NCBI GenBank assembly: GCA_003220265.1
Contig: QHRW01000115.1
Coordinates: forward strand, 1,391-65,390
Length of the DNA stretch: 64,000 bases
Source of the DNA: Candidatus Rokuibacteriota bacterium
GTDB taxonomy: Bacteria > Methylomirabilota > Methylomirabilia > Rokubacteriales > CSP1-6
Reading direction: 5' to 3'
Below the pieces are notes generated by a model. The model searched no databases. It was given only the letters and a program-made list of their open reading frames with translations, and was not told the origin of the DNA. Position numbers and translations under genes: made by a program. Position 1 is the stretch's first letter. Every line of letters starts with the position of its first letter. This document shows positions 7,086-63,336 of the stretch, piece after piece.

Positions 7086-7838
7086 ATGCGCGTCGTGGAC
7101 ACCGTCCTCGACGCCATGGTGGCGGCGGCCCGCGCCGGCGGCGCCGTCGCGCTCGCGCATTTCCGACGCGGCGTCGACGTCACTCTCAAGGCCGATCGCT
7201 CACCCGTCACCATCGCGGATCGCGACGCCGAGCAGACCATCCTGACCTCGCTGGCGCGCGCCTGCCCCGACCACGGGATCCTCGCCGAGGAATCCGGCGG
7301 CAGCGGGCCCGGCGCGCGCCGCTTCATCGTGGATCCCATCGACGGCACGCGAAACTTCGCCCGCGGCATCCCGTACTGGGCCGTGCTCGTCGCGCAGGAA
7401 GAGGACGGCGTGATCCACCAGCCGGCGAGCGGCGAGGTCTATACGGCGCGCCGGGGACGGGGCGCGCAGCTCGACGGCGCGCCCATCCACGTCTCGCCGG
7501 TGGCGACGCTCGGCGAGGCCACCGTCGCACACGGCACGCTGCGCATCCTGCGCCGGCGCGGGCGGTGGGAGGGCTTCGAGCGGCTCGTGGACGCCACGCG
7601 CAGCCAGCGTGGCTTCGGCGACTTCCTCTGCTATGCGTGGCTGGCGGCCGGCCGCGTGGACGTGGCGCTCGGCCTCAACCTCAAGATCTGGGACGTGGCC
7701 GCCCCGAAGATCATCGTGGAAGAGGCGGGCGGCCGGCTGACGGACCTGGACGGCCACGACTCGCTGACCTCCGGCACCGCCCTCGCCAGCAACGGCCGCC
7801 TGCACGCGGCCGCGCTGAAGGCTCTCGCCGCCTCCTAG
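7086..7838 (+). CDS. Inositol monophosphatase family protein (IMPase / histidinol-phosphatase-like)
   Basis: MRVVDTVLDAMV...SPVTIADRDAE...DPIDGTRNF...WDVAAPKIIVEEAGG. Start is the internal ATG of ORF 6948..7838. Confidence 0.85.
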   Translation: MRVVDTVLDAMVAAARAGGAVALAHFRRGVDVTLKADRSPVTIADRDAEQTILTSLARACPDHGILAEESGGSGPGARRFIVDPIDGTRNFARGIPYWAVLVAQEEDGVIHQPASGEVYTARRGRGAQLDGAPIHVSPVATLGEATVAHGTLRILRRRGRWEGFERLVDATRSQRGFGDFLCYAWLAAGRVDVALGLNLKIWDVAAPKIIVEEAGGRLTDLDGHDSLTSGTALASNGRLHAAALKALAAS

Positions 7839-11488: not shown

Positions 11489-11841
11489 GGACGATGCGAG
11501 CTTTCAGCACCTTCAGGATTTTTGTGGCGATGCTCCTGGTCGTGGCATTTCTGCCGGCGTGCCAGTCGATGAGCGGCCGGAGCGCCGGTCGGGTCATCGA
11601 TGACAAGGCGATCTCGGCTCAGGTCAAGACGAAGCTGGCCGCGGACAAGGCCTCGAGCCTCACGCGCATCGGCGTGACGACCGTCAACGGTGTCGTGCAC
11701 CTCGACGGCGTCGTCGACAACGTCGACGACAGGGCCCGCGCGGTGGACATCGCGCGGCGGGTGGCCGGTGCCAACAAGGTCGTGGACAACATCCAGGTCA
11801 ACCCGACACCGGCGGCGTCGCCGTCGGGGTCAACGAAGTAG
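11485..11841 (+). CDS. BON-domain lipoprotein (OsmY-like)
   Basis: Lipobox FLPAC, then DDKAISAQVKTKLAAD...VTTVNGVVHLDGVVDNVDDRARAVDIARRVAGANKVVDNIQV. Confidence 0.8.
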   Translation: MRTMRAFSTFRIFVAMLLVVAFLPACQSMSGRSAGRVIDDKAISAQVKTKLAADKASSLTRIGVTTVNGVVHLDGVVDNVDDRARAVDIARRVAGANKVVDNIQVNPTPAASPSGSTK

Positions 11842-14800
11842 CCGCGGGCCGGGATAGCCGTCCCAGGTCAGTCGCGCGCCGTCGGCGCTGAAGCCGGCCT
11901 CGATGAAGGCGGCGAACGCCTCGGTCTCGCGAATGGGACGGCTATCCCAGCCAACGATCTCCAGCCGGCGCACGGGCCGCAGCGTCAGCGGCCGCTCCAT
12001 CAGCGTCTGCAGTGCGCGCACCGTGCCCGGCAGATCCACCGGCTCGAATGCCGCCAGCGGCGTCAGCTCACGCCCGTAATTTTCGGCGACGACCACCGGT
12101 CGCCCCGCGCGCACGATCAGCCAGGCGTGCGGCAGCCGCGCCACGCCGAGCCGGCCACCGTCCCGCCGTGACAGCGGCCACGCGCGGCCCCAGAGGTTGG
12201 CCGGATCCGCGAGGTTGACGAGGACGTGTGGCTCAGCACGACGCGGACTTGCAGCCAGGTTGGTCAGGGAATCCTCGAGGGCGTATTGCTCGCCGGAGAG
12301 CCCCTCGACGAAGTAGCCGCGGACGACTTCGCCGCCGTATTCCATCCGCAGCAGCGTGTGGCGCAGGGTCGCCCAGTCGCCCCGCGCCAGCTCGCGGGTC
12401 ACCACTGCGTAGCGCGCCAGCAAGAGCTGAGCGCGGGCTTCTTCGCGTTCCTCGGGCGAGAGCCGCTCCTCTTCGGCGAGCGCACTCCACCGTCCGATCG
12501 GCGGCAGGTGAGCGAGCAAACCCCGGGCCTGACCGCGACGCGGCCGCCGCCGGCGCGCTGATCCGGTCTCCGCGCCACGCGGTGAGGCAGCGGCGGCCAC
12601 GATCGCGCTGAACGTGTCCGGCGTCGCCAGGCCGGCGCGGAACAGATCCCAGAGCGCCGCCTCGACCTGCGGCGGCTCGAGGCCGGCGCCGCGGGCGAGA
12701 TCGCGCGCGAACGAGGCACCGCGGAGCTGCAGGTGCAACAGGACGTTCTTGGTTTTCGGATCGAGCTCCGGCCGCTCGCCGGTCTCCCGCAGCCAGCCCA
12801 CGTTGTCGCGCAGGGCGACGCCGACGCGCCCCGCGGCGGGCTCGAAGACCGTCCACACGATCTCGCCGGCCAGCCCGAGGCGATCGAGCCACTCGCGCTG
12901 GTAGTCCTCCACGCGGGCGGACAGCAGGTCCTGCTCCCAGACCTTGACGGGAAAGTCCTCGCCCTGCAGCAGCTCGAGGGCGGCCAGTACGCCGGGCGGG
13001 CCGACCAGGCGGTGCTCGGGGTGCAGGTGATGACGGCGCAGCAGGAAGGCCGCGAACTGCTCGGCCGTGGCGACCGGGCGGGGCACGCGTCGCGCGTGCA
13101 CCTGGCGCCGCTGGATCTCGTCGAGCACTGCGATGTGGAGATACCTCTCCAGCTTGAGGGGGGCGCTGCCCCCCTCAAGCTCCTCCCGCATGAAGTCGCC
13201 ACGGCGCACGACCCCCCGGGCGACCAGCCGCTCCAGCGCCGGCTGGATATCGTCCGGGGTGAGCCCGTAGCGTTCGGCGAGTGACTGAGCGGTGACGGGG
13301 CCGCGGGTGCGGAGCGCGCGCAGGGCGATGCGCTCGAGCCCGGCCTCCGTGGCCAGCCCCGCGTAGAGCGGCGCGTCGGTGGCGGGAATCCAGGCGTGCC
13401 GCGCGCCGAACTCGACGAGCGTGATCCGGCGCTCGGCGAGCAGCGCGGCGATCAGCGCGTCGGCGTCGCTCACCACGCGCTCGCCGATCTCGGCGCGGGT
13501 GAGGTCGCCCAGGTCGTCGAGAATCGCGGCCAGCTCGTTGGCGTCGCGCGCGCGGCGCTCGGGCGTCGTCCGTTGCAGCTCGGCCTCGACGGCGGCGATG
13601 ATCTCCGGACGCAGCGGGCCGGGCGCCACGCTCCAGTTCTTGCGCATGGCCACCGTGTCGGAGCGCCGCTCCTCGGCGTGGCCGGTGTCGAGATACGCCC
13701 AGTCCCAGGCCAGCAGCAGCGGGTAGACGAACGGCGAGGGCACCGGCGTGTCCACGTGCCGCGTCCACATCTCGCCGTCGTGCAGCCGCTCCAGGACGCG
13801 CTTGAGCCGCGGGACGTCGTAGGCGTCGTTGAAGCACTCGCGCAGCGTCTCGGCGACCACGGGGAAATCGGGCTGGCCCTTGACGGCCTCCAGCAGCGCA
13901 TCCGCCTTCAGCCGCTGCAGGTAGGCGGGCGTGCGTTGCCCGCGCGTCATGCGGGGGATGAAGAGCGCGCGCACGGCGGCGTGGCGGAAGCGCGTGCCGA
14001 ACAACGGCGAGCCGATCAGCGCCTCGCCGAGCAGATTGTCGAGCTCCTCGGGCGCCACCAGCGTCACCAGGCGCTCGGGCGCCGGCGGCACCTGGCCCGG
14101 CGCGAACGACAGGAGGATGCCGTCGTCCACGTGGCTAACTTCGGCCTGCAGGCCGAAGCGGCGGCGCACCTGCTCGCGCAGCGCCATGCCCCAGGCGCCG
14201 TTGATGCGCATGCCGAAGACCGAGTGGATCATGGCGTGGCGGCCGCCCATCTCGTCGGAGAACGACTCGACGACGATGCCCTGGTCGTCCGCCACGCCCT
14301 GCAGCACCTCGCCGGCCTTCACGAGCCACGCGTGCATCGCGGCGGTGGCCCGCGCGTCCAGGCCGCACTCGCGGGCGGCCCAGGCGGCGAAGTCGGGGGC
14401 ATCCAGGCGCTCGGCCGCGTCGCGGCGCAGCCGGCCGACGGCGACGCCGAGGTCCCACGAGCGCGAGGGGTGCTCGCCCTTCCAGAACGGGATGGTCGGC
14501 GACATGCCCTGGGCGTCCTCTACCAGCACGCGGTCGGCGCGGACCTTGGCGATCTTCCACGCGTGCGAGCCCAGCAGGAACACGTCGCCCGGCAGGCTCT
14601 CGGTGACGAACTCCTCGTCGAGCGTGCCCACCTTGAGGTCCGTCTCGGCCACGTAGACGTCGTAGAGCCCGGCGTCGGGGATGGTGCCGCCCGCCGTCAG
14701 CGCCAGGAACCGGCTGCCGCGCCGCGCGTGCAGGCGATCGTTCACGCGGTCCCACAGGATCCGCGGCGCCACGCCTTTCACCTCGGCCGGCAGCGGCTCC

Positions 14801-16245
14801 GCCTCCGAGCGCACGACCTCGCGGAAGGTCTCGCGCGCCAGCGTGCGGTAGGGGAACGCGCTCACGAACCGCTCGTAGAGCGCATCCACGCCGATCGACT
14901 CGGCGGCCACGGCCGCGACGACCTGCTGGGCCAGCACGTCCAGCGGCGCCTCCGGCATCGCGATGCGATCGAGGCGATGCTCGCGGATCGTGCGCACGAC
15001 GGCCGCGGCCTCCAGCAGCTCCTCGCCTTTCGTGACGAGAATGCGCCCCTTCGAGGTGCGCGACAGCAGATGGCCGGCGCGCCCCACGCGCTGCAGCGCG
15101 GCCGCCACGTTGCGCGGCGACTGCACCTGGATCACGAGGTCGATCGCGCCCACGTCGATGCCGAGCTCGAGCGACGAGGTGGCGACGAGCGCCCGCAGCT
15201 CGCCCGCCTTGAGCCGGTTCTCGGCCTCCAGCCGCGCGCGCCGCGAGAGTGACCCATGATGGGCCGCCACTTTGTTGCCGAAGGGGGCTACGCCCCCCTC
15301 GCTCTCCCCTTTGTTGGCGAAGGGGGCTACGCCCCCCTCGCTCTCCCCCGGTCCATCGGGGATCCGATCGTTGAGGTCCCGCGCCAGCCGCTCGGCCGCC
15401 CGCCGGCTCTGCGCGAACACCAGCGTCGTGCGGTGGGCCAGCACCAGCTCGGCGATCTGCTGGAGCGCCGCGTCCCACACGGTGTCGCTGGTCGCCGTGA
15501 GGAAGTCGTCCACCGGCGAGACGACCTGCACGTCGAGGTCGCGCGAGAAGCCGGCGTCCACAACCAACGGTTCGCGCCCGGTGGCGCCCGTCAGAAAGGC
15601 CAGCGCATCCTCGATGGGGCTCACCGTCGCCGAGCAGCCGATGCGCTGCGGGCGCGCGCCCGGCTCACGCTCGGCCACCAGCGCCTGCAGCCGCTCCAGC
15701 GAGAGCGCGAGGTGAGAGCCGCGCTTGCTGCCCATGAGCGCGTGGACCTCGTCCACGATGACGAAGCGGGCCTGGGCCAGCGCCGGCCGGAAGCCCGCGC
15801 TCGTGAGCAGGATGTAGAGCGACTCGGGCGTGGTGATCAGCACGTGAGGCGGCCGTCGGGTCATCGCCTGGCGCGCGGCCGCCAGCGTGTCGCCGGTGCG
15901 GACGGCCACGCGGACCTCGGGGACGTCGAGGCCGTCGGCCTCGGCCGCGGCGCGGATGCCGGCCAGTGGCTCGCGCAGGTTCTTCTCGATGTCGTTGTTC
16001 AGCGCGCGCAGCGGCGAGACGTAGACCACGTAGACGCGGTCCTCGAGACGTCCCTCGAGCCCCAGCCGGTGCAGGTGGTCCAGCGCCCACAGAAACGACG
16101 CCAGCGTCTTGCCGGACCCCGTCGGCGCCACGATGAGCGTGTCGCGGCCGGAGGCGATCGCGTCCCAGCCCTCACGCTGCGGGCGGGTGGCCTCGGTGAA
16201 CGTCGCCTCGAACCAGCGACGGACGAAGGGGAGGAACTGCGGCAT
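11830..16245 (-). CDS. lhr: ATP-dependent helicase Lhr (large helicase-related, DEAD/DEAH superfamily 2)
   Basis: 1471 aa: APTGSGKT (Walker A), VIVDEVH, CSATV, HHGSLSRRAR, TSSLELGIDVG, QRVGRAGH, plus a long Lhr-type C-terminal domain. Confidence 0.9.
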   Translation of the reverse strand: MPQFLPFVRRWFEATFTEATRPQREGWDAIASGRDTLIVAPTGSGKTLASFLWALDHLHRLGLEGRLEDRVYVVYVSPLRALNNDIEKNLREPLAGIRAAAEADGLDVPEVRVAVRTGDTLAAARQAMTRRPPHVLITTPESLYILLTSAGFRPALAQARFVIVDEVHALMGSKRGSHLALSLERLQALVAEREPGARPQRIGCSATVSPIEDALAFLTGATGREPLVVDAGFSRDLDVQVVSPVDDFLTATSDTVWDAALQQIAELVLAHRTTLVFAQSRRAAERLARDLNDRIPDGPGESEGGVAPFANKGESEGGVAPFGNKVAAHHGSLSRRARLEAENRLKAGELRALVATSSLELGIDVGAIDLVIQVQSPRNVAAALQRVGRAGHLLSRTSKGRILVTKGEELLEAAAVVRTIREHRLDRIAMPEAPLDVLAQQVVAAVAAESIGVDALYERFVSAFPYRTLARETFREVVRSEAEPLPAEVKGVAPRILWDRVNDRLHARRGSRFLALTAGGTIPDAGLYDVYVAETDLKVGTLDEEFVTESLPGDVFLLGSHAWKIAKVRADRVLVEDAQGMSPTIPFWKGEHPSRSWDLGVAVGRLRRDAAERLDAPDFAAWAARECGLDARATAAMHAWLVKAGEVLQGVADDQGIVVESFSDEMGGRHAMIHSVFGMRINGAWGMALREQVRRRFGLQAEVSHVDDGILLSFAPGQVPPAPERLVTLVAPEELDNLLGEALIGSPLFGTRFRHAAVRALFIPRMTRGQRTPAYLQRLKADALLEAVKGQPDFPVVAETLRECFNDAYDVPRLKRVLERLHDGEMWTRHVDTPVPSPFVYPLLLAWDWAYLDTGHAEERRSDTVAMRKNWSVAPGPLRPEIIAAVEAELQRTTPERRARDANELAAILDDLGDLTRAEIGERVVSDADALIAALLAERRITLVEFGARHAWIPATDAPLYAGLATEAGLERIALRALRTRGPVTAQSLAERYGLTPDDIQPALERLVARGVVRRGDFMREELEGGSAPLKLERYLHIAVLDEIQRRQVHARRVPRPVATAEQFAAFLLRRHHLHPEHRLVGPPGVLAALELLQGEDFPVKVWEQDLLSARVEDYQREWLDRLGLAGEIVWTVFEPAAGRVGVALRDNVGWLRETGERPELDPKTKNVLLHLQLRGASFARDLARGAGLEPPQVEAALWDLFRAGLATPDTFSAIVAAAASPRGAETGSARRRRPRRGQARGLLAHLPPIGRWSALAEEERLSPEEREEARAQLLLARYAVVTRELARGDWATLRHTLLRMEYGGEVVRGYFVEGLSGEQYALEDSLTNLAASPRRAEPHVLVNLADPANLWGRAWPLSRRDGGRLGVARLPHAWLIVRAGRPVVVAENYGRELTPLAAFEPVDLPGTVRALQTLMERPLTLRPVRRLEIVGWDSRPIRETEAFAAFIEAGFSADGARLTWDGYPGPRLLR
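13151..13181. repeat. 31-nt palindrome (14-bp stem, 3-nt loop) embedded in frame in lhr
   Basis: AGCTTGAGGGGGGC-GCT-GCCCCCCTCAAGCT, paired by hand. On the gene strand it encodes ELEGGSAPLKL. Confidence 0.75.
15271..15348. repeat. 2 x 39-nt in-frame tandem duplication inside lhr, each copy carrying a GC hairpin
   Basis: 15271-15309 and 15310-15348 differ at 1 of 39 positions. The core is CGAAGGGGGC-TAC-GCCCCCCTCG. They encode GESEGGVAPFANK and GESEGGVAPFGNK. Confidence 0.85.
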
Positions 16246-28741: not shown

Positions 28742-29494
28742 CTAGAGCGCGAGAAGCTCGTGCCGCAGCGCCTGGTCGTCGCGCAGGCGGGCGGCGGGGC
28801 CGCTGAAGCGAATCGAGCCCTTCTCCAGCACGTAGACGCGGTCGGCCAGGGCCAGCGAGAACTCGGTGTTCTGCTCGGCGAGCAGAATGGTCAGTCCCTC
28901 GTGCTTGAGCCGCGCGATCTGCTCGCGCAGGTGATCGACGACGAGCGGCGCCAGGCCTTCGGAGGGCTCGTCGAGGAGCAGCAGCTCGGGGTTGCCCATG
29001 AGCGTCCGCGCGATGGTCAGCATCTGCTGCTCGCCACCCGAGAGATAGCCGCCGTTGCGCCCGGTCAGCTCGCGCAGCTTGGGGAAGAGATCGAAGACTC
29101 GCTCCACGGTCCATTGGAGCGGGTGCCGGGAGTCCGGATCGCTCCGAGGGTGGCCTGGTCTAGATGCGGCGTGGCTCCGTTTACTGGCGACGTCCAGGTT
29201 CTCCCAGACCGTGAGGTCGGCGAAGATGCGCCGGTCTTCGGGGACGAAGCCGATGCCGGCCTGGGCGACTCGGTACGGCGGCCAGCCGGTGATGTCGACG
29301 GACTTCCACGTGATGCGGCCCGCCTGCGGCGGCGTGAGGCCCATGATCGAGCGCATCGTCGTCGACTTGCCCACACCGTTGCGGCCGAGCAGGCACACGC
29401 ACTCGCCGGCCGCCACCTCCAGCGACACGCCGAACAGCACGCGTGAGAGCCCGTAGGCCGTGTGCACGTCGTGCGCCTCCAGGACGACACTCAT
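28742..29494 (-). CDS. livF: Branched-chain amino acid ABC transporter ATP-binding protein LivF
   Basis: MSVVLEAHDVHTAYG...GRNGVGKSTT (Walker A), LSGGEQQML, LLLLDEPSEGL. The real start is ATG 29494; the 373-aa ORF extension reads through the repeats. Confidence 0.9.
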   Translation of the reverse strand: MSVVLEAHDVHTAYGLSRVLFGVSLEVAAGECVCLLGRNGVGKSTTMRSIMGLTPPQAGRITWKSVDITGWPPYRVAQAGIGFVPEDRRIFADLTVWENLDVASKRSHAASRPGHPRSDPDSRHPLQWTVERVFDLFPKLRELTGRNGGYLSGGEQQMLTIARTLMGNPELLLLDEPSEGLAPLVVDHLREQIARLKHEGLTILLAEQNTEFSLALADRVYVLEKGSIRFSGPAARLRDDQALRHELLAL

Positions 29495-29948
29495 CTCTCG
29501 ACGTGGGGGGCCCCGACATGGCCCCCCACACCCCCCAACGCTCGGAGTGCCCCGGGGAACCCGTGGCACTCCTCGATTTCCCGCGTGCTCATCTCTCGAC
29601 GTGGGGGGGCCCCGACATGGCCCCCCACACCCCCCAACGCTCGGAGTGCCCCGGGGAGCCCGTGGCACTCCTCGAGTTCCCGCGTGCTCATCCTCTCGAC
29701 GTGGGGGGCCCCGACATGGCCCCCCACACCCCCCAACGCTCGGAGTGCCCCGGGGAACCCGTCGCACTCCTCGAGTTCCCGCGTGCTCATCTCTCGACGG
29801 GGGGCCCCGACATGGCCCCCCACCCCCGCCAACGCTCGGAGTGCCCCGGGGAACCCGTGGCACTCCTCAAGTTCCCGCGTGCTCATCTCTCGACGGGGGG
29901 CCCCGACATGGCCCAACCCGTCGTACTCCTCGATTCCCCGCGTGCTCA
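29491..29948. repeat. Tandem array 1 of the two-hairpin GC-rich repeat family (5 units: 98, 99, 99, 96, 63 nt)
   Basis: On the plus strand, units start at 29491, 29589, 29688, 29787 and 29883, each beginning TCATC(C)TCTCGACG. Hairpin 1 is at 29503-29529 and hairpin 2 at 29544-29572. Confidence 0.9.
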
Positions 29949-30683
29949 TCGGCGCTCGCCCAGGTAGACGCGGCGGACCTCGGCGTCGGCGCGGACGTCG
30001 GCGGGCGCGCCCTCGGCGATCACGCGGCCCTGGTGGAGCACGGTGATCTTCTGCGCGATCGAGAAGACGACCTCCATGTCGTGCTCGGTGAACAGGAGCG
30101 TGAGGCCCCGCTCGCGCGCGATGCGCTCGACGAGACGGATCGTCTCGCGCGTCTCGGAGACGGACATGCCCGCCGTCGGCTCGTCGAGCAGGAGCAGCGA
30201 CGGCTCGCTGGCCAGCGCGATGCCGAGCTCGAGCTGCTTCTGGGCGCCGTGGGAGAGGAAGCCGCTCACCTCGCCGGCGCGCTCGCGCAGGCCCAGCGAC
30301 GCCAGCAGCGCCTCGGTCTCGCCCCGGTAGAGCTCGTCCACGCGGCTCCAGAGATCGAGCCCGCGCCCCCGGTGCGACAGGAACGCGGCCTGCACGTTCT
30401 GGTAGACCGTCAGCCGGGGAAAGATGTTCGTGCGCTGGAAGGAGCGCCCCATGCCGAGGCGGCAGACGTCGTGCGGGGGCAGCCCGGTGATGTCGCGGCC
30501 CTCGAGCACGACGGCGCCCGCCTCCGGCCGGAGGTGGCCGGTGATCAGGTTGAACAGCGTCGTCTTGCCGGCGCCGTTCGGGCCGATGATCGCCGCGATC
30601 TGCCCGCGGGCCACGCTGACGCTGGCGTCGTTGACGGCCACGAAGCCGTCGAACGACTTGCGCACGCCACGCACCTCGAGCAT
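29946..30683 (-). CDS. livG: Branched-chain amino acid ABC transporter ATP-binding protein LivG
   Basis: MLEVRGVRKSFDGFVAVNDASV...GPNGAGKTTLFN, LSHGAQKQLE, LLLLDEPTAGM. Internal start of ORF 29946..31283. Confidence 0.9.
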   Translation of the reverse strand: MLEVRGVRKSFDGFVAVNDASVSVARGQIAAIIGPNGAGKTTLFNLITGHLRPEAGAVVLEGRDITGLPPHDVCRLGMGRSFQRTNIFPRLTVYQNVQAAFLSHRGRGLDLWSRVDELYRGETEALLASLGLRERAGEVSGFLSHGAQKQLELGIALASEPSLLLLDEPTAGMSVSETRETIRLVERIARERGLTLLFTEHDMEVVFSIAQKITVLHQGRVIAEGAPADVRADAEVRRVYLGERR

Positions 30684-38327: not shown

Positions 38328-39815
<1,488 letters not shown>

Positions 39816-39830
<15 letters not shown>

Positions 39831-40110
39831 CGCGCCGCTGATCGCGGAGCGCCACGGCCTGGCCGGGGCGCTCCGAGCGCGGGGGGGCGTGGGGGGCCAT
39901 TTCGGGGCCCCCCACGACGGGCGGTGAAGCGGGTCATCGCGCCGGTGATCGCGGAGCCCCCCGGCGTGGCCGGGGCGCTCCGAGCGCCGGGGGGCATGGG
40001 GGCCATTTCGGGGCCCCCCACGACGGGCGGTGAAGCGGGTCATCGCGCCGGTGATCGAGGAGCGCCGCGGCTTGGCCGGGGCGCTCCGAGGGCCGGGGGG
40101 GCGTGGGCAT
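39816..40110. repeat. Tandem array 2 of the two-hairpin repeat family (107 + 106 nt units plus one 5'-truncated unit), in opposite orientation to arrays 1 and 3
   Basis: On the plus strand, units start with GGTGAAGCGG(C/G)TCATCGCGCC at 39816, 39923 and 40029. Hairpin 2 is at 39846-39874. Hairpin 1 is GTGGGGGGCC-ATTTCGG-GGCCCCCCAC. Confidence 0.9.
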
Positions 40111-40326
40111 CTCGCCGCCGGCCGCGCTCATCACGGCCTGGATGTTGGCGCACACCTGGCGGAACTGGGCCACGACGTCGCCCTTGCCCACCACGACGTT
40201 GTTGCCGTCGCGCGCGACCTGGCCGGCGATGAACACGAGGCGGCCGTGCTTGACCTCGAAGCCGTACGAGAAGCCCTGCGGCTTCGGCAGCGTGCGGGGC
40301 AGCACCGACGAGATGTGGTCCTTCAT
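39934..40326 (-). pseudogene. ridA: RidA/YjgF family gene truncated after about residue 73 and fused in frame to repeat-derived sequence
   Basis: MKDHISSVLPRTLPKPQGFSYGFEVKHGRLVFIAGQVARDG...QFRQVCANIQAVMSAAGGEM is RidA-like. From 40107 downward the ORF reads through repeats as PTPPRPSERPGQAAALLDHRRDDPLHRPSWGAPKWPP... Confidence 0.7.
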
Positions 40327-47927: not shown

Positions 47928-48010
47928 GGGCCGCCCCGGCTGCGCCGGGGCGGCCCGAGCGTCGGGGGGGTTGGGGCCATCTCGGGGGAACGTCCATAGG
48001 GACCCCCCAC
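47928..48010. repeat. Solo degenerate copy of the two-hairpin repeat (same orientation as array 2)
   Basis: A perfect 29-nt palindrome GGGCCGCCCCGGC-TGC-GCCGGGGCGGCCC lies at 47928-47956. It is followed by GAGCGTCGGGGGGGTTGGGGCCATCTCGGGGG...CCCCCCAC, which aligns with array 2 except for an insertion of about 13 nt in hairpin 1. Confidence 0.7.
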
Positions 48011-48084: not shown

Positions 48085-49395
48085 CGTTGTTAGGCGCCGG
48101 GCAGGTACAAACCGGGTACATAGGTAACACATCAAACCGGGAACATGGGTGACACCACTAAGGTCGTCGGTCAACGGGAGGTTGGCCGATGGCCTGGCTG
48201 GAGACATCACCCGTGGAGCAGCGAGAGCGGTTCATCCGCGATCACCGAATCGGGTTGTACACGATGGCGGAACTCTGTGCCCGTTACGACGTCAGTCGGA
48301 AGACCGGCTACAAATGGCTCGCGCGCTTCGACGCCGCGGGTCGCGCCGGTCTCCAGGACCGCAGCCGCGCGCCGCACCACTGCCCGCACCGGATCACTCC
48401 GGATGTCGCCGCGGTGATCTGTGCCGCGCGCCGGCAGCATCCGAGCTGGGGACCCGCGAAGCTCTTGGCGTGGCTGGAGCGTCGGCAACCGGCGCTGGAG
48501 CTGCCCGCGATCAGCACCGCCGGCGATCTCTTGGCGCGCCGCGGGCTAGTGAAGACACGACGGCGCCGCCGCCACTACGAGCATCCTGGTGTCGTTCCGA
48601 TCAGGACGACGGCGCCCAACGATCTCTGGACCGCGGACTTCAAGGGCCATTTTCGAACACGTGATGGGCTCTATTGCTATCCGCTCACCGTCGCCGACCA
48701 GCACACGCGCTATCTCTTGGCGTGCCATGGCCTGCTCTCGACCAAAGGCGGCGGCGTGCGCCCGGTCTTCGATCGACTGTTCCGCGAGTATGGGCTCCCC
48801 CAGGCCATTCGGACCGACAACGGCGTGCCGTTCGCCACGACGGGCATTCACGGCCTCTCCCAGTTGAACGTGTGGTGGCTGCGTCTGGGCATTCAGCACC
48901 AGCGGATCCGCCCGGCCTCGCCGCAGGAGAACGCCGCCCACGAGCGCATGCACAAAACGCTCAAGGGCGAGGCGATTCGGCCGCCCCGGTCAACGTGCGT
49001 CACTCAGCAGCGCGCCTTTAACGGCTTTCGCCACCTGTACAACGACGAGCGACCCCACGAAGCGTTGCAGGGGCGCACGCCGGTGTCGCTCTACCGTCCC
49101 TCGCGGCGGGAGTACACCGGGGCGGTACCGCCCGTCGAGTACCCCGGACACTTCATCGTCAAGCGGGTGACCAATGCCGGCACGATCCGGCTGAACAAGC
49201 GCCTACTCTTCATTGCGAATGCGCTGAAGCAGCACCCGGTCGGGCTCGAGGAGGTCGACGACGGCATCTGGTCCATTCATTTCTGCCGCGTGCTATTGGG
49301 GCGCGTGGACGAACGGGACTACATCATCAGAACGTGAACGGTTACCCATGTTCCCGGTTTACGGTGTTACCTATCTTCCCGGTTGCTCAGCACAA
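48085..49395 (+). mobile_element. IS481-family insertion sequence (ends approximate)
   Basis: A single DDE transposase ORF is flanked by imperfect inverted ends: left ...AACCGGGTACATAGGTAACAC..AAACCGGGAACATGGGT, and the reverse complement on the right. Termini are near TGTTAGGC (48088) and GCTCAGCACA (49394). Confidence 0.75.
48189..49337 (+). CDS. IS481-family transposase (HTH + rve/DDE integrase core)
   Basis: 382 aa: MAWLETSPVEQRERFI..., LWTADFKG, IRTDNGVPF, PQENAAHERMHKTLK, YNDERPHEAL. Confidence 0.85.
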   Translation: MAWLETSPVEQRERFIRDHRIGLYTMAELCARYDVSRKTGYKWLARFDAAGRAGLQDRSRAPHHCPHRITPDVAAVICAARRQHPSWGPAKLLAWLERRQPALELPAISTAGDLLARRGLVKTRRRRRHYEHPGVVPIRTTAPNDLWTADFKGHFRTRDGLYCYPLTVADQHTRYLLACHGLLSTKGGGVRPVFDRLFREYGLPQAIRTDNGVPFATTGIHGLSQLNVWWLRLGIQHQRIRPASPQENAAHERMHKTLKGEAIRPPRSTCVTQQRAFNGFRHLYNDERPHEALQGRTPVSLYRPSRREYTGAVPPVEYPGHFIVKRVTNAGTIRLNKRLLFIANALKQHPVGLEEVDDGIWSIHFCRVLLGRVDERDYIIRT

Positions 49396-60049: not shown

Positions 60050-61762
60050 TCAGGCGTCTTCCTGCGTGACTCTCAGGATCTCCTCGACCGTGGTGGCCCC
60101 CTCGCACGCGCGCTTCCAGCCGTCCATGCGCAGGGTCGCCATGCCGCGCTGGATGGCGTGCTGGCGGATGTCGCGCGTGGAGGCGCGGCGCAGGATGAGG
60201 CTACGCGCGTCCTCATCGAGGACGAACAGCTCGTAGATGCCGGAGCGGCCGCGATAGCCGGTGCCGCGGCACTCCTCGCAGCCCTTGCCGCGGAAGAGCG
60301 TGACGTCGGGGGGAGCGTCGATGCCGAGCGCGTCGAGGTCGGCCTTGGACGGCGTATCGGGCACGCGGCAGCTCGGGCAGATGCGGCGGACGAGGCGCTG
60401 GGCCAGCACGGCCTCGAGCACCGAGGCGACCAGGTAGCCTTCCACGCCCATGTCTTGCAGGCGCGTGATGGCGCCGGGCGCGTCATTGGTGTGCAGCGTC
60501 GAGAAAACCAGGTGGCCGGTGAGAGAGGCCTGGATGGCCACCTCGGCCGTCTCCAGGTCGCGGATCTCGCCGACCAGGATGACGTCGGGGTCCTGCCGGA
60601 CGATGTGGCGCAGGCCGTTGGCGAAGCTGAGCCCGATCTTCGGCTTCACCGGGATCTGGTTCACACCCTTGAGCTGGTACTCGACGGGATCCTCGACCGT
60701 GATGATCTTCACGCCAGGCGAGTTGATCTTGTCGAGCGCGGCATAGAGTGTCGTCGTCTTGCCGGAGCCCGTGGGTCCGGTGACCAGCACGATGCCGTGC
60801 GGCCGCTTGATCAGCCCCTCGAACCGCTTGAGGGTGTCGGTCGGGAACCCGAGCTTTTCGAGCGGGTGGAAGACGCTCGAGCGCTGCAGCAGCCGCATGA
60901 CGATCGACTCGCCGTGGACGGTCGGGATGGTGGACACGCGGATGTCCACGCGCTGGCCGTGGAGCGTCACGCGGATGCGGCCGTCCTGGGGCAGCCGCCG
61001 CTCGGCGATGTTCAGCTCGGCCATGATCTTGATGCGCGAGGTGACGGCCGCCTGCAGCCGGCGCGGCGGCGCTTCCTGCTCGTACAGAATGCCGTCGATG
61101 CGGTACCGGATGCGCAGCGTGTCCTCGAACGGCTCGATGTGGATGTCGGAGGCCTCGCTGCTGATGGCGCCCTCGATGAGCAGGTTCACCAGCCGCACGA
61201 CGGGCGCCTCGAACGCCATGTCGCGCAGGTGATTGACGTCCTCGTCGTCGCCGGCGCCCCCCTCGTCGTCCATGCCCTCCACGATCCGCTGCAGCGGTGT
61301 GGCGGCGCCGTCGTAGGTGCGGTCGATCGCCTGGGTGATGGCGTCGGCCGGGCACACGACGATCTTGATGTTGAGCCCTGTCGACTGGCGCAGGTCGTCC
61401 ACGATGATCGGGTTCAGGGGATCGGCGGTGGCCACCGTCAGCAGGCCGCCCTCCACGCTCACCGGGCAGACCGCGTTCTGCCGGAGATACTTCGGCGAGA
61501 GGTTCTTGAGCACGGGCAGCGCCGAGGGCAGCTCGTCGGCCGTGACGAAGGCCAGGTTTTGCTGGCGAGCCAGCGCGCGCAGCACGTCCTCGGCGGTGAC
61601 AGCGCCGAGCGCGACCAGCGCTTCGCCGATCAGCTCACCGGTCGTCTGCGCGCGGGCGAGGCCCCGCTCGATGACGTCCGGGGTGGTGAGGCCCTCCTGG
61701 ACGAGAATCTCGCCCAGAAGGCGGGGGGAGGCGGCGATGACCATGTTATTCTTCCGCAACAT
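60050..61762 (-). CDS. gspE: Type II secretion system ATPase GspE
   Basis: N-terminal MshEN-type domain (LGEILVQEGLTTPDVIERGL), GPTGSGKTTT (Walker A), DPDVILVGEIRD, tetracysteine CPSC...CEEC. The start is ATG 61762 or 61744. Confidence 0.9.
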   Translation of the reverse strand: MLRKNNMVIAASPRLLGEILVQEGLTTPDVIERGLARAQTTGELIGEALVALGAVTAEDVLRALARQQNLAFVTADELPSALPVLKNLSPKYLRQNAVCPVSVEGGLLTVATADPLNPIIVDDLRQSTGLNIKIVVCPADAITQAIDRTYDGAATPLQRIVEGMDDEGGAGDDEDVNHLRDMAFEAPVVRLVNLLIEGAISSEASDIHIEPFEDTLRIRYRIDGILYEQEAPPRRLQAAVTSRIKIMAELNIAERRLPQDGRIRVTLHGQRVDIRVSTIPTVHGESIVMRLLQRSSVFHPLEKLGFPTDTLKRFEGLIKRPHGIVLVTGPTGSGKTTTLYAALDKINSPGVKIITVEDPVEYQLKGVNQIPVKPKIGLSFANGLRHIVRQDPDVILVGEIRDLETAEVAIQASLTGHLVFSTLHTNDAPGAITRLQDMGVEGYLVASVLEAVLAQRLVRRICPSCRVPDTPSKADLDALGIDAPPDVTLFRGKGCEECRGTGYRGRSGIYELFVLDEDARSLILRRASTRDIRQHAIQRGMATLRMDGWKRACEGATTVEEILRVTQEDA

Positions 61763-62492
61763 GCTAGCATACCTGGCTTTTGCGGCCGTCGCGGCTGTCG
61801 CGGACGTGGCCGGAGCCGTGATCGTCACGACCGCCCACAAGCGCCGCCACGCCCCCCTCAGGTACTTCGTCGCCGCCGGGGCCGGGTTCATGCTGGCCGC
61901 CGCCTTCGTGCGCATGCTGCCGGAGGCGACCCAGGTCCCCCACGCCTTTCTTTACGTGCTGATCGGCTACTTCGGGGTTCACCTGTTCGAGCACACCTTC
62001 GCGCCGCACTTCCACTTCGGCGAGGAGACCCACACGGACGCCATGCTCAAGCGCTCGTCGGGCTGGCTGGCGGCCATCGGTCTGGGCGTGCACACGCTCT
62101 TCGACGGGGTGGCCATCGCGGCCGGCTTCATGGTGAGTCCCACCCTGGGCGGCCTGCTGTTCCTGGCGGTTGTCATCCACAAGATTCCCGAGGGCTTCAC
62201 GATCGCCTCGATCATGCTGGCGGCCGGCTACGCGCGCGGCGCGGCCGTGGCCGCCGGCGGCGCGCTTGGTGTGCTGACGCTCGGCGGCGCGCTCCTCACC
62301 GGCCTGGTCGCGCATCAGCACGTGGGGGCGGCGCTCGCGCTCTCGGCCGGCGTCACGATCTACGTCGCCGCGTCCGACCTCATCCCCGAGGTCAATCGCG
62401 AGGGCGGGCCCGCCCTGGCGTGGACGGTCTTCGGGGGGCTCGTCTTCTTCATCGTGGCCGACTGGCTGCTCTCGGAGTTCGTCAGCCATTGA
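61761..62492 (+). CDS. ZIP family metal transporter (ZupT-like)
   Basis: MLAYLAFAAVAAVADVAGAVIV..., HTLFDGVAIAAGF, VVIHKIPEGFTIAS. The start is ATG 61761; alternatives are 61737 and 61743. Confidence 0.8.
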   Translation: MLAYLAFAAVAAVADVAGAVIVTTAHKRRHAPLRYFVAAGAGFMLAAAFVRMLPEATQVPHAFLYVLIGYFGVHLFEHTFAPHFHFGEETHTDAMLKRSSGWLAAIGLGVHTLFDGVAIAAGFMVSPTLGGLLFLAVVIHKIPEGFTIASIMLAAGYARGAAVAAGGALGVLTLGGALLTGLVAHQHVGAALALSAGVTIYVAASDLIPEVNREGGPALAWTVFGGLVFFIVADWLLSEFVSH

Positions 62493-62825
62493 TCATGGGG
62501 GCCACGAAATGGCCCCCAAACCCCCCGACGTTCGAAGCGCCCCGGCGGAGCCGTGGCGCTTCTCTGGAATGGTCCAGCGTCATGGGGGCCTCGACATGGC
62601 GCCCCCAAACCCCCCGACGTTCGAAGCGCCCCGGCGGAGCCGTGGCGCTTCTCTGGAATGGTCAGCGTCATGGGGGCCTCGACATGGCGCCCCCAAACCC
62701 CCCGACGTTCGAAGCGCCCCGGCGGAGCCGTGGCGCTTCTCTGGAATGGTCAGCGTCATGGGGGCCCCGAGATGGCCGCCAAGCCCCCACACGTTCGTCG
62801 CGCCCCGGCGCTTCTCTGGAAGCTG
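62493..62825. repeat. Tandem array 3 of the two-hairpin repeat family (87, 88, 88 nt plus one degenerate unit)
   Basis: Units start with TCATGGGGGCC at 62493, 62580, 62668 and 62756. Hairpin 2 of unit 1 is at 62534-62562. The last unit has lost the hairpin-2 loop. Confidence 0.9.
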
Positions 62826-62853: not shown

Positions 62854-63336
62854 ATGCGCGCCGCGCTCGTCCTGCACGGCCCTAATCTCAATCTGCTCGG
62901 CACTCGCGAGCCGGGAGTGTATGGCCGCGCGTCGCTGGCCGAGGTGGATCGCCTCGTGCAGGCGCAGGGCAAGCGGCGCGGGCTGCGCGTGGAGTGCCGC
63001 CAGTCGAACGTGGAGGGTGAGCTGATCAACTGGCTGCAGGGGGCGGCGCGCGAGGGCTTCGACGGCGTCGTGTTCAACCCGGGCGCGTTCACCCACTATT
63101 CGATCGCGCTGCGCGACGCGGTGGCGGCCATCACGCTGCCCGTGGTCGAGGTCCACCTCTCCAACATCCACGGCCGCGAGGAGTTCCGCCAACACTCGGT
63201 GATCGCCGCGGTAGCGCGCGGCCAGATCGCCGGCTTCGGCGCCCACAGCTACGTGCTCGCGCTCGACGCCTTGCTGGCGCTGCGCGACGGCCGCGCGCCC
63301 GCGCGCGTGAATTCCCGCCGTCGTCGCGGCGTCTAA
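62854..63336 (+). CDS. aroQ: Type II 3-dehydroquinate dehydratase
   Basis: MRAALVLHGPNLNLLGTREPGVYG..., NPGAFTHYSIALRDA, EVHLSNIHGREEFR. Internal ATG of ORF 62509..63336. Confidence 0.9.
   Translation: MRAALVLHGPNLNLLGTREPGVYGRASLAEVDRLVQAQGKRRGLRVECRQSNVEGELINWLQGAAREGFDGVVFNPGAFTHYSIALRDAVAAITLPVVEVHLSNIHGREEFRQHSVIAAVARGQIAGFGAHSYVLALDALLALRDGRAPARVNSRRRRGV

Follow-up and report, generated by a model that had tools for sequence, protein, structure and literature searches.

What kind of repeat fills the junction between two genes of a liv operon in Candidatus Rokuibacteriota, and how does the operon put up with it? The window analysed here is a stretch of 64,000 nucleotides from contig QHRW01000115.1 (assembly GCA_003220265.1, positions 1,391 to 65,390). 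On its minus strand, five direct G+C-rich units, named array 1 (29491-29949), occupy the whole interval between a livG-like and a livF-like gene. A preliminary description, made from the sequence alone, saw in each unit two hairpins and could assign them to no repeat family. Array 1 would probably be a local tandem expansion of a non-coding two-hairpin repeat specific to Rokubacteria, seated in the ATGA overlap of livG and livF. It would be coupled to translation on the principle known from mycobacterial interspersed repetitive units (MIRUs).

The genes livH, livM, livG and livF all lie on the minus strand, according to Pfam and a codon-usage gene caller. The upstream cistron encodes a livG-like ABC ATPase (29946-30683; Pfam ABC_tran and BCA_ABC_TP_C, gene call) and stops at TGA 29948-29946. 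The downstream cistron encodes a livF-like ABC ATPase (28742-29494; translation and a precomputed Pfam ABC_tran match), and its ATG (29494-29492) lies within an ATGA overlap. Tandem Repeats Finder places array 1 at 29490-29914, with a period of 99, 4.4 copies, 95% matches and a score of 762. On the gene strand, ATGAG opens every unit, and these landmarks delimit units at 29949-29887 (63 nt), 29886-29791 (96 nt), 29790-29692 (99 nt), 29691-29593 (99 nt) and 29592-29495 (98 nt). The five direct units of 98, 99, 99, 96 and 63 nt listed in the preliminary description match these landmarks; the gap, given there as 452 nt, measures 451 nt between the codons (29495-29945). The statement that the array exactly fills the junction also holds. 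What it overlooked is that the genes run on the minus strand and that the array consists of coupled open reading frames (ORFs) bounded by ATGA.

Array 1 as a whole constitutes a 152-codon ORF. The end of livG reads ...CGCCGATGA, and the ORF begins at the ATG therein (29949-29947), which overlaps the livG stop. Its product is (MSTRELEECHGFPGALRALGGVGGHVGAPRRE)n. The ORF terminates ...GAGAGATGA, where its TGA (29493-29491) overlaps the ATG that starts livF. None of the units has a stop codon in the ATG frame. The lengths of the four upstream units are multiples of three, so that the frame of the ATG is preserved and the TGA stays outside it; with its 98 nt, the final unit brings its TGA into frame. 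The ATGA that each unit has on the coding strand links small ORFs, by overlapping stops and starts, into a chain from livG to livF. A stable hairpin 1, folding with 8-10 bp, ends 9 nt upstream of each AUG. Only GAGAG abuts the AUG directly, and thus a spaced Shine-Dalgarno sequence is missing in array 1.

An uninterrupted ORF with an ATGA overlap at either end might also be taken for a gene encoding a genuine 152-residue repeat protein, and the gene caller of one metagenome assembly did report a 216-residue product. This is highly improbable. The codon-usage score of the ORF (-0.07 per codon) is far from that of the window's genes (0.46 ± 0.13), and no Pfam family exceeds the cutoff. A search of 5.8 billion proteins returned only 14 matches, all weak, domain-less and hypothetical. 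The variation between copies tracks hairpin base pairing and not codon positions, and most other sites have this DNA in a non-coding or antisense position. Nor is the ORF constant at livG/livF, where the number of units ranges from 3 to at least 6.5; in another assembly (L003), it is split into ORFs of 33 and 66 codons.

If array 1 is instead a translation-coupled non-coding repeat, a ribosome terminating at the livG UGA would restart at the overlapping AUG. It would then read through the array, melting the hairpins on the way, and stop at a UGA that overlaps the next AUG, finally that of livF. Operon coupling would thereby survive a 451-nt, highly structured insert that leaves livF without a usable ribosome-binding site of its own. 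The number of units would drift by slippage or unequal recombination, as in a variable number tandem repeat (VNTR). Only variants keeping the chain of coupled ORFs would persist, and chain-breaking ones would be lost. We infer both the ribosome re-initiation along array 1 and the selection behind its frame pattern. As each stop-restart step may have an efficiency cost, the number of units could possibly set the LivG:LivF ratio.

The comparison with other metagenomes bears on this mechanism. An identical LivF protein is encoded on six metagenome contigs. In other soil assemblies with identical LivF, the livG/livF units read on the gene strand measure 98/99/98 nt (L003) and 96/96/99/99/98 nt (L002), and a third (L001) has at least five units of 99 nt followed by one of 98 nt. 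The unit counts across assemblies are 3, 5, 5 and at least 6.5, and the junction behaves as a VNTR. In all assemblies compared, the ORF chain from the livG stop to the livF ATG is unbroken; in L003, it consists of a 33-codon followed by a 66-codon ORF. Units whose length leaves a remainder of one on division by three are absent among the assemblies compared, and four different indels each convert the 98-nt unit to a multiple of three. Copy number also varies in the array between the genes for a ZIP metal transporter and the dehydroquinase AroQ (array 3 of the window), which has 3 or 4 units in assemblies with identical AroQ.

It is scarcely credible that the tandem copies are an artefact of short-read metagenome assembly. 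Many short contigs do end inside arrays, and copy numbers derived from short reads are uncertain for this reason. However, independent assemblies from ENA and JGI, made from different samples with different pipelines, recover the same ordered unit variants at both livG/livF and ZIP/aroQ. The units are told apart by diagnostic indels, and a seven-copy array (L057) is carried by a 3.28-Mb contig from a different genome bin. The arrays can be regarded as real.

Related loci show what the junction looks like without the element. Of 80 metagenome loci with a gene for a LivF relative (52-81% identical), only one has the element at the livG/livF junction. The element-free junctions that were read consist of a bare ATGA in L131 (...GAGCGCCGATGACCGCC) and L137, of GTGA in L127, L132, L136 and L139, and of TGATG in L128 and L142. 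From the bare-ATGA relatives, the junction in the window can be read as the native ATGA plus n times about 98 nt, each unit regenerating ATGA. In L130, a solo copy oriented like array 1 forms a mini-ORF of about 34 codons, which runs from a GTG overlapping the livG TGA to a TGATG at livF. In L129, an unrelated insert of 65 nt likewise extends from ATGA to ATGA. At ZIP/aroQ, the empty site of a relative (ZIP 85% identical) reads ...CAC TAG CGGCG ATG, and the filled alleles read ...CAT TGA T(T/C)ACATGGGGG...GCTATYC TGA/TGG (G)CG...ATG. The native CAC TAG thus becomes CAT TGA beside the element. Such comparisons of empty and filled sites suggest that insertion takes place at the stop codon or the ATGA itself.

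Coupled mini-ORFs are also found at unrelated operon junctions in other bins. They have the orientation of array 1, are bounded by ATGA, GTGA or TGATG, and always read the core in one frame (..GGVGGHVGAP..). Such mini-ORFs connect acyl-CoA dehydrogenase with CoA-transferase (L043; MSTRGIEERHGFPGAHRTWGGVGGHVGAPHMDG*), 3-hydroxyisobutyrate dehydrogenase with metallophosphoesterase (L033), atpD with atpC (L035) and, with two units, EngA with DUF3047 (L073). At two further sites (L095:3393-3470 and L042:2081-2147), the mini-ORF frame is fused in frame to the downstream gene. The downstream protein of L095 begins MDLFDTHAHL and is presumably TatD-like. These two cases would be N-terminally extended proteins and not coupled ORFs.

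The element itself is defined by its secondary structure. In the leftmost unit of array 1, hairpin 1 (29503-29529) is GTGGGGGGCC-CCGACAT-GGCCCCCCAC, which folds as a 10-bp stem with a 7-nt loop, and compensatory changes occur at its two outer pairs among 95 copies. Hairpin 2 (29544-29572) comprises 12 bp, arranged as 8 + 4 bp about one conserved C/T mismatch, with a GAA loop; changes on both sides affect 8 of its 14 pairs. Both hairpins are as previously proposed. They fold on either strand. Per unit, the minimum free energy of the RNA lies between -49 and -62 kcal/mol (-49 to -54 in array 1). Compared with dinucleotide shuffles, arrays 1 and 2 reach z-scores of -2.7 to -4.1, and array 3 is marginal (z -1.7).

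Covariation was scored per cell, i.e., one sequence at one base pair, in an alignment of 95 distinct copies. In the two-hairpin structure, 91.8% of the cells are standard pairs, compared to 41-56% with slid partners. Changes on both sides were found in 11 pairs and 113 cells, whereas shuffles gave 29 ± 5 and none of 500 reached 113. At the outermost position of hairpin 1, for instance, 21 copies have A-U, 20 G-C, 7 C-G and 5 U-A; the pair that closes the loop of hairpin 2 is C-G in 65 copies and G-C in 28. Almost no variation is seen in the C-run between the hairpins. RNAalifold pairs the G-run of hairpin 1 with the second C-run (alignment columns 6-10 with 34-38) instead of forming hairpin 1. 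Hairpin 1 was retained over this pairing because its outer pairs covary. As the C-run is able to pair with the G-run, a mutually exclusive alternative fold is possible. The scan of the 64-kb window against Rfam gave no matches at the gathering threshold, in agreement with the earlier description of the repeat as unrecognised. An intrinsic terminator was considered and rejected, since the hairpins on the mRNA strand are followed by ACGUCGAGAGAUGA or GAGCGUUGGGG, without a U run.

The repeat is widespread. With the strict core pattern and one genome per species, at least 111 stretches were found, almost all listed in Rokubacteria, Rokuibacteriota or Methylomirabilota bins from soil and groundwater. 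The source names of ZIP homologues fit a Rokubacteria/Methylomirabilota taxonomy. Two strict-pattern matches carry Acidobacteriota labels (L008, a Candidatus Acidoferrum bin, and L016, an Acidobacteria bin). Genome bins can hold misassigned contigs, and these matches could be mis-binned Rokubacteria contigs or true cross-phylum presence. In the window plus 116 loci (0.88 Mb), the core profile detects 220 copies at 149 sites. Solo copies make up 106 of these sites, and the other 43 hold direct arrays of 2-7 copies, whose periods span 41-186 nt and are mostly 77-136 nt. The 116 loci were chosen by the core pattern itself; beyond these seeded matches, the density is about 36 sites per Mb. The view of a dispersed core (about 70 nt) followed by local direct tandem arrays is thus well founded, and the copies expected beyond the window exist, with copy number, orientation and distances to stops and starts tabulated over the 0.88 Mb.

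The genomic context was counted for the 144 sites outside liv, using gene calls from a codon-usage caller, by which start codons are uncertain outside the window. Sites between co-directional genes have the core in the same sense in 35 cases and in the opposite sense in 29; 34 sites lie between convergent and 12 between divergent genes, 20 inside a called ORF and 14 at a contig edge. Between the end of hairpin 1 and the stop codon of an upstream gene in the same orientation, the median distance is 3 nt, with 82% within 10 nt (n = 76). From the hairpin-1 end to the start of an opposite-strand gene, the median is 12 nt, with 49% within 10 nt (n = 47). The other end is less constrained: from hairpin 2, the median distance is 26.5 nt to a convergent stop (15% within 10 nt; n = 68) and 71.5 nt to a downstream start (6% within 10 nt; n = 50).

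This polarity raises the question of whether the element is a cis-acting RNA signal. A very stable hairpin 0-8 nt past the stop would stall terminating ribosomes or block 3' exonucleases and so tune the yield of the upstream gene. The livG/livF array would then be a dosage regulator and not a tolerated parasite. Besides the short distances to upstream stops, compensatory changes keep both hairpins. According to Liang et al. (2015), as cited in PMC12306157, repetitive extragenic palindromes (REPs) of Escherichia coli situated less than 16 nt from a stop cause ribosomes to stall and reduce translation. Nevertheless, a preference of insertion sites could explain the polarity equally well, both orientations relative to transcription occur (35 same, 29 opposite), and the counts of G-U versus A-C mismatches single out neither strand as the functional RNA. 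Moreover, the hairpins of array 1 are on the opposite strand to those of the stop-adjacent copies. That the element is chiefly a cis-acting signal is possible but rather unlikely. The stop-adjacent copies in the other orientation may act like the stop-proximal REPs of E. coli.

Evidence for an insertion preference is found directly at the element boundary. The 12 nt 5' of the G-run are A+T-rich in a genome of 71% G+C, with a consensus of roughly GAYTRA.NACAT. A pyrimidine precedes the element-adjacent stops in 48 of 61 cases, compared to 306 of 698 in the background (p = 1.5e-7), and a T precedes them in 21 of 61 versus 43 of 698 (p = 1e-9). Both this YTRA junction and the empty sites, set against filled ones, suggest that the element inserts into stop codons and ATGA overlaps. 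A general target-site duplication was not found: direct repeats from flank to flank average 5.27 nt, against 4.95 nt in permuted pairs. Isolated cases have flanking direct repeats of 11 nt (L082), 9 nt (L074) and CTCATC (L043, L033). The solo copies at L082:6977-7100 and L074:28-150 lie between host direct repeats of 11 nt (GCCCTCCTCAG) and 9 nt (CTCGTTGAA), respectively. In L082, the gene now ends at the element-adjacent TGA, two codons ahead of its apparent original stop, which suggests that the element is able to supply a stop codon. By eye, no terminal inverted repeats of the element were recognised.

Movement on single-stranded hairpins by a RAYT, the HUH tyrosine transposase of classical REP/REPIN families, would make the arrays mere by-products. 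High-copy extragenic palindromes whose structure is conserved rather than their sequence fit such a family, as do the short conserved motif 5' of hairpin 1 and the lack of a general target-site duplication, which is expected for single-strand 'peel-and-paste' movement. However, REPIN-type inverted doublets are nearly absent: only two neighbouring site pairs are inverted, and all 43 arrays are direct. The unit is also about 70-100 nt long and contains two different hairpins. Among the 902 ORFs in the fetched loci near copies, neither a RAYT nor another mobilising enzyme was found; the scan for HUH plus tyrosine gave one candidate, which is a DctQ transporter subunit. In L044, inverted copies flank a gene which, judged by eye from its sequence, resembles the YfiH type and not a transposase. 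A RAYT-driven family is improbable.

Sub-families share 3' extensions, which serve as linkers in the arrays. At least 17 copies have GATTCGTTCACGGGCTC after hairpin 2; this extension, 4-24 nt past hairpin 2 and often followed by TGAG, was noted in L006, L011, L017, L019, L022, L040, L049, L053, L064, L075, L096 and L102. CTGAG occurs on both sides of several copies (L075, L096, L021). The earlier statement that linkers are conserved only within an array applies within the window but not beyond it, as the linker of array 1 recurs at the unrelated junction L043. Two different loci (L033 and L073) have a common linker distinct from that of array 1. A variant hairpin 1, CATGGGGGGACTATCGAAGCCCCCC, with another loop and inner stem, is found at L011:1504-1580, L019:5627-5690, L049:~7490-7610 and L053:22-84. 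Since it is joined to the usual spacer and hairpin 2, the family is modular.

Within the window, a profile hidden Markov model built from the 72-nt core detects 12 copies, located at the four places named earlier, and a strict 28-base core pattern gives 6 matches, compared to none in 100 shuffles. The three loci besides array 1 were recovered by the core profile at 39846-40114 (inverted, three copies), 62495-62812 (four copies) and 47933-47987 (solo). Only array 1 lies precisely between a stop and the next start, a position that had been claimed for three of the four loci.

Array 2 (39809-40114, minus strand, core in the same sense as the genes) contains two full copies and one truncated copy with a period of 106-107 nt; Tandem Repeats Finder reports 39809-40107 with a period of 106. 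Read by eye, each of its units also holds about the first 22 nt of the downstream gene, which encodes an Old-yellow-enzyme-type flavin oxidoreductase (38328-39830, minus strand; Pfam, gene call) and whose ATG lies within ATGA. Upstream, a truncated RidA/L-PSP gene (39934-40326, minus strand) matches only positions 11-63 of the 121-position Pfam profile. Its reading frame goes on into array 2 and ends at the ATGA of a unit. Its 3' half was destroyed either by the arrival of array 2 or by a later deletion. No recorded match was found to the exact dehydrogenase and flavin-oxidoreductase proteins flanking array 2. Array 3 (62493-62812, plus strand, core in the same sense as the flanking genes) has four copies, the last with an internal deletion, and a period of 87-88 nt (Tandem Repeats Finder: 62493-62810, period 88). 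The ZIP metal transporter gene (61737-62492, plus strand; Pfam) adjoins it with its stop TGA at 62490-62492, and aroQ, encoding a type II dehydroquinase (62854-63336, plus strand; Pfam), follows it. The array begins 2 nt past the ZIP stop and ends 41 nt short of the aroQ ATG.

The solo copy (47933-47987, minus strand) is diverged and lies downstream of an enoyl-CoA hydratase gene, 56 nt past a stop and about 225 nt ahead of the next gene. Its hairpin 2 is a perfect 13-bp palindrome (47928-47956). An IS481-family insertion sequence (48108-49386) is located about 120 nt from it, with the transposase at 48213-49337 (plus strand; Pfam rve, rve_3 and LZ_Tnp_IS481). Its 44-nt terminal inverted repeats (48110-48153 and 49341-49384) each consist of two copies of AACCGGGNACATRGGTRAC; the '25-nt tandem repeat' reported by Tandem Repeats Finder at 48108-48155 is the left terminal repeat. 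The IS481-family transposase was rejected as the mobiliser of the family, as these terminal repeats share only 'ACATGGG' with the element and their motif is absent from all 211 fetched loci.

Several observations weigh against translation coupling as the explanation of array 1. Arrays 2 and 3 are not cleanly coupled and lack small ORFs that overlap both neighbouring genes. Most copies of the family lie after stops or between convergent genes, and the family overall is not MIRU-like. The start codons at other loci come from a crude codon-usage gene caller and are uncertain. In the chain test, with 1- or 2-nt deletions as controls, 12 of 28 sites with the core opposite to the genes pass, compared to 14 of 56 controls, which is only moderately convincing. 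A manual tally of short-gap solo copies gave strictly coupled chains in 5 of 12 sites versus 3 of 24 controls. Coupled chains as a family-wide property are not supported for gene-co-oriented copies, which show no enrichment (16 of 31 versus 28 of 62). The deletion controls on the arrays L002 and L003 still pass, since the ATGA at each junction lets an array correct itself: a ribosome that reads a 98-nt unit in the third frame arrives at the following unit in the ATG frame. This weakens the frame argument. Finally, the G-rich strand is stop-free in all three frames at 71% G+C, so that long ORFs are cheap.

Among known systems, MIRUs come closest to array 1. They are direct tandem repeats of about 50-100 bp in operon gaps. 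Their small ORFs run in the direction of the flanking genes and overlap the ends of these, coupled at -4 nt (ATGA) (PMC4473831, PMC12548453). Their copy number varies between strains, and insertion is thought to occur at start codons with little effect on expression (PMC4473831, PMC12548453). Array 1 likewise has units of 63-99 nt in direct tandem order between genes of the liv operon. Co-oriented small ORFs with overlapping ends are found at array 1 and all its assembly variants and at L043, L033, L035, L073 and L130, and copy number is variable at livG/livF and ZIP/aroQ. In contrast, MIRUs are described without dyad symmetry (PMC4473831), whereas the present element consists of two strong covarying hairpins. 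The hosts also differ, Mycobacterium for MIRUs and Rokubacteria here, and most members of the present family abut stop codons in either orientation, outside operon junctions. Because of the dyad symmetry and the different phylum, array 1 was set apart from MIRUs as they are described. The earlier view that the unit matches no nameable family is upheld by the hairpins, but the strictly direct tandem layout and the unit size, which it also invoked, are both MIRU-type. Read in this way, array 1 adds a clear second and independent case of intercistronic repeats coupled to translation, from a phylum without cultures.

The likeness to REPs and bacterial interspersed mosaic elements (BIMEs), also suggested earlier, applies in part. 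Like REPs, the copies are high-copy, extragenic, G+C-rich imperfect palindromes, many of them within 15 nt of a stop codon. Transcription within operon mRNAs is a further point of likeness to REP and BIME elements. They are not BIME-like, as inverted neighbouring pairs number only two. REP and BIME elements occur as alternating or inverted pairs, whereas the present element forms direct tandem arrays and is a composite of two unlike hairpins and an invariant C-run, 70-100 nt in all. Its stop adjacency is also far tighter: 82% lie within 10 nt of a co-oriented upstream stop, compared to 11-52% within 15 nt for the REPs of E. coli (PMC12306157). A RAYT, as in REP/REPIN families, was not found among the ORFs scanned near copies.

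Other short non-autonomous structured repeats are tolerated at gene ends, such as the Correia elements of Neisseria, ERIC and the Rickettsia palindromic elements, and the last are read in frame within genes. The present family resembles them in being a short structured repeat at gene ends; it differs in its direct tandem arrays and in a YTRA junction motif that overlaps stop codons. Terminal inverted repeats, as in MITEs, were not recognised, and no general target-site duplication was found. A different repeat was noted in the window at 15270-15348, within an Lhr-type large helicase gene (ORF 11830-16245, minus strand). This is a 39-nt in-frame duplication (GESEGGVAPF[A/G]NK twice) between the DEAD and Helicase_C domains, and its unit forms a small hairpin in which a G5 run pairs with a C6 run. 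This could be one more short palindromic element that is tolerated inside a gene.

A bolder and rather unlikely reading is that the family represents an unrecognised class of mobile or copy-propagated element of a candidate phylum, which would home specifically to translational punctuation, to stops via the YTRA junction and to ATGA overlaps. All frames of the G-rich strand are free of stop codons, as is the C-rich strand of array 3, and the unit ends with its own ATGA. Such a 'translation-transparent' element could colonise zero-length operon junctions and act there as a hypervariable tuner of cistron stoichiometry, with its hairpins recognised by an enzyme.

The literature searched on repeats of Rokubacteria and Methylomirabilota contains no description of this family, and two units gave no blastn match among 72,556 plasmids. 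The family appears to be undescribed in the literature and databases searched, Dfam and MIRU sequences being outside the comparison. It unites REP-like palindromes abutting stop codons with MIRU-like mini-ORFs that preserve coupling, features previously known from separate families. Its unusually strict stop-codon polarity deserves a mechanistic explanation.

The uncultured Rokubacteria abound in soils and have unusually large genomes, of which 8-17% is non-coding (PMC5712423). At about 36-60 sites per Mb, the family accounts for part of this non-coding DNA, and its arrays explain breaks in short-read assemblies of the group. Gene callers render the arrays as spurious 'hypothetical proteins'. 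The arrays are usable as VNTR markers for tracking Rokubacteria strains in soil metagenomes. Furthermore, the family provides a non-mycobacterial case in which to ask whether such repeats are tolerated or tune operon expression.

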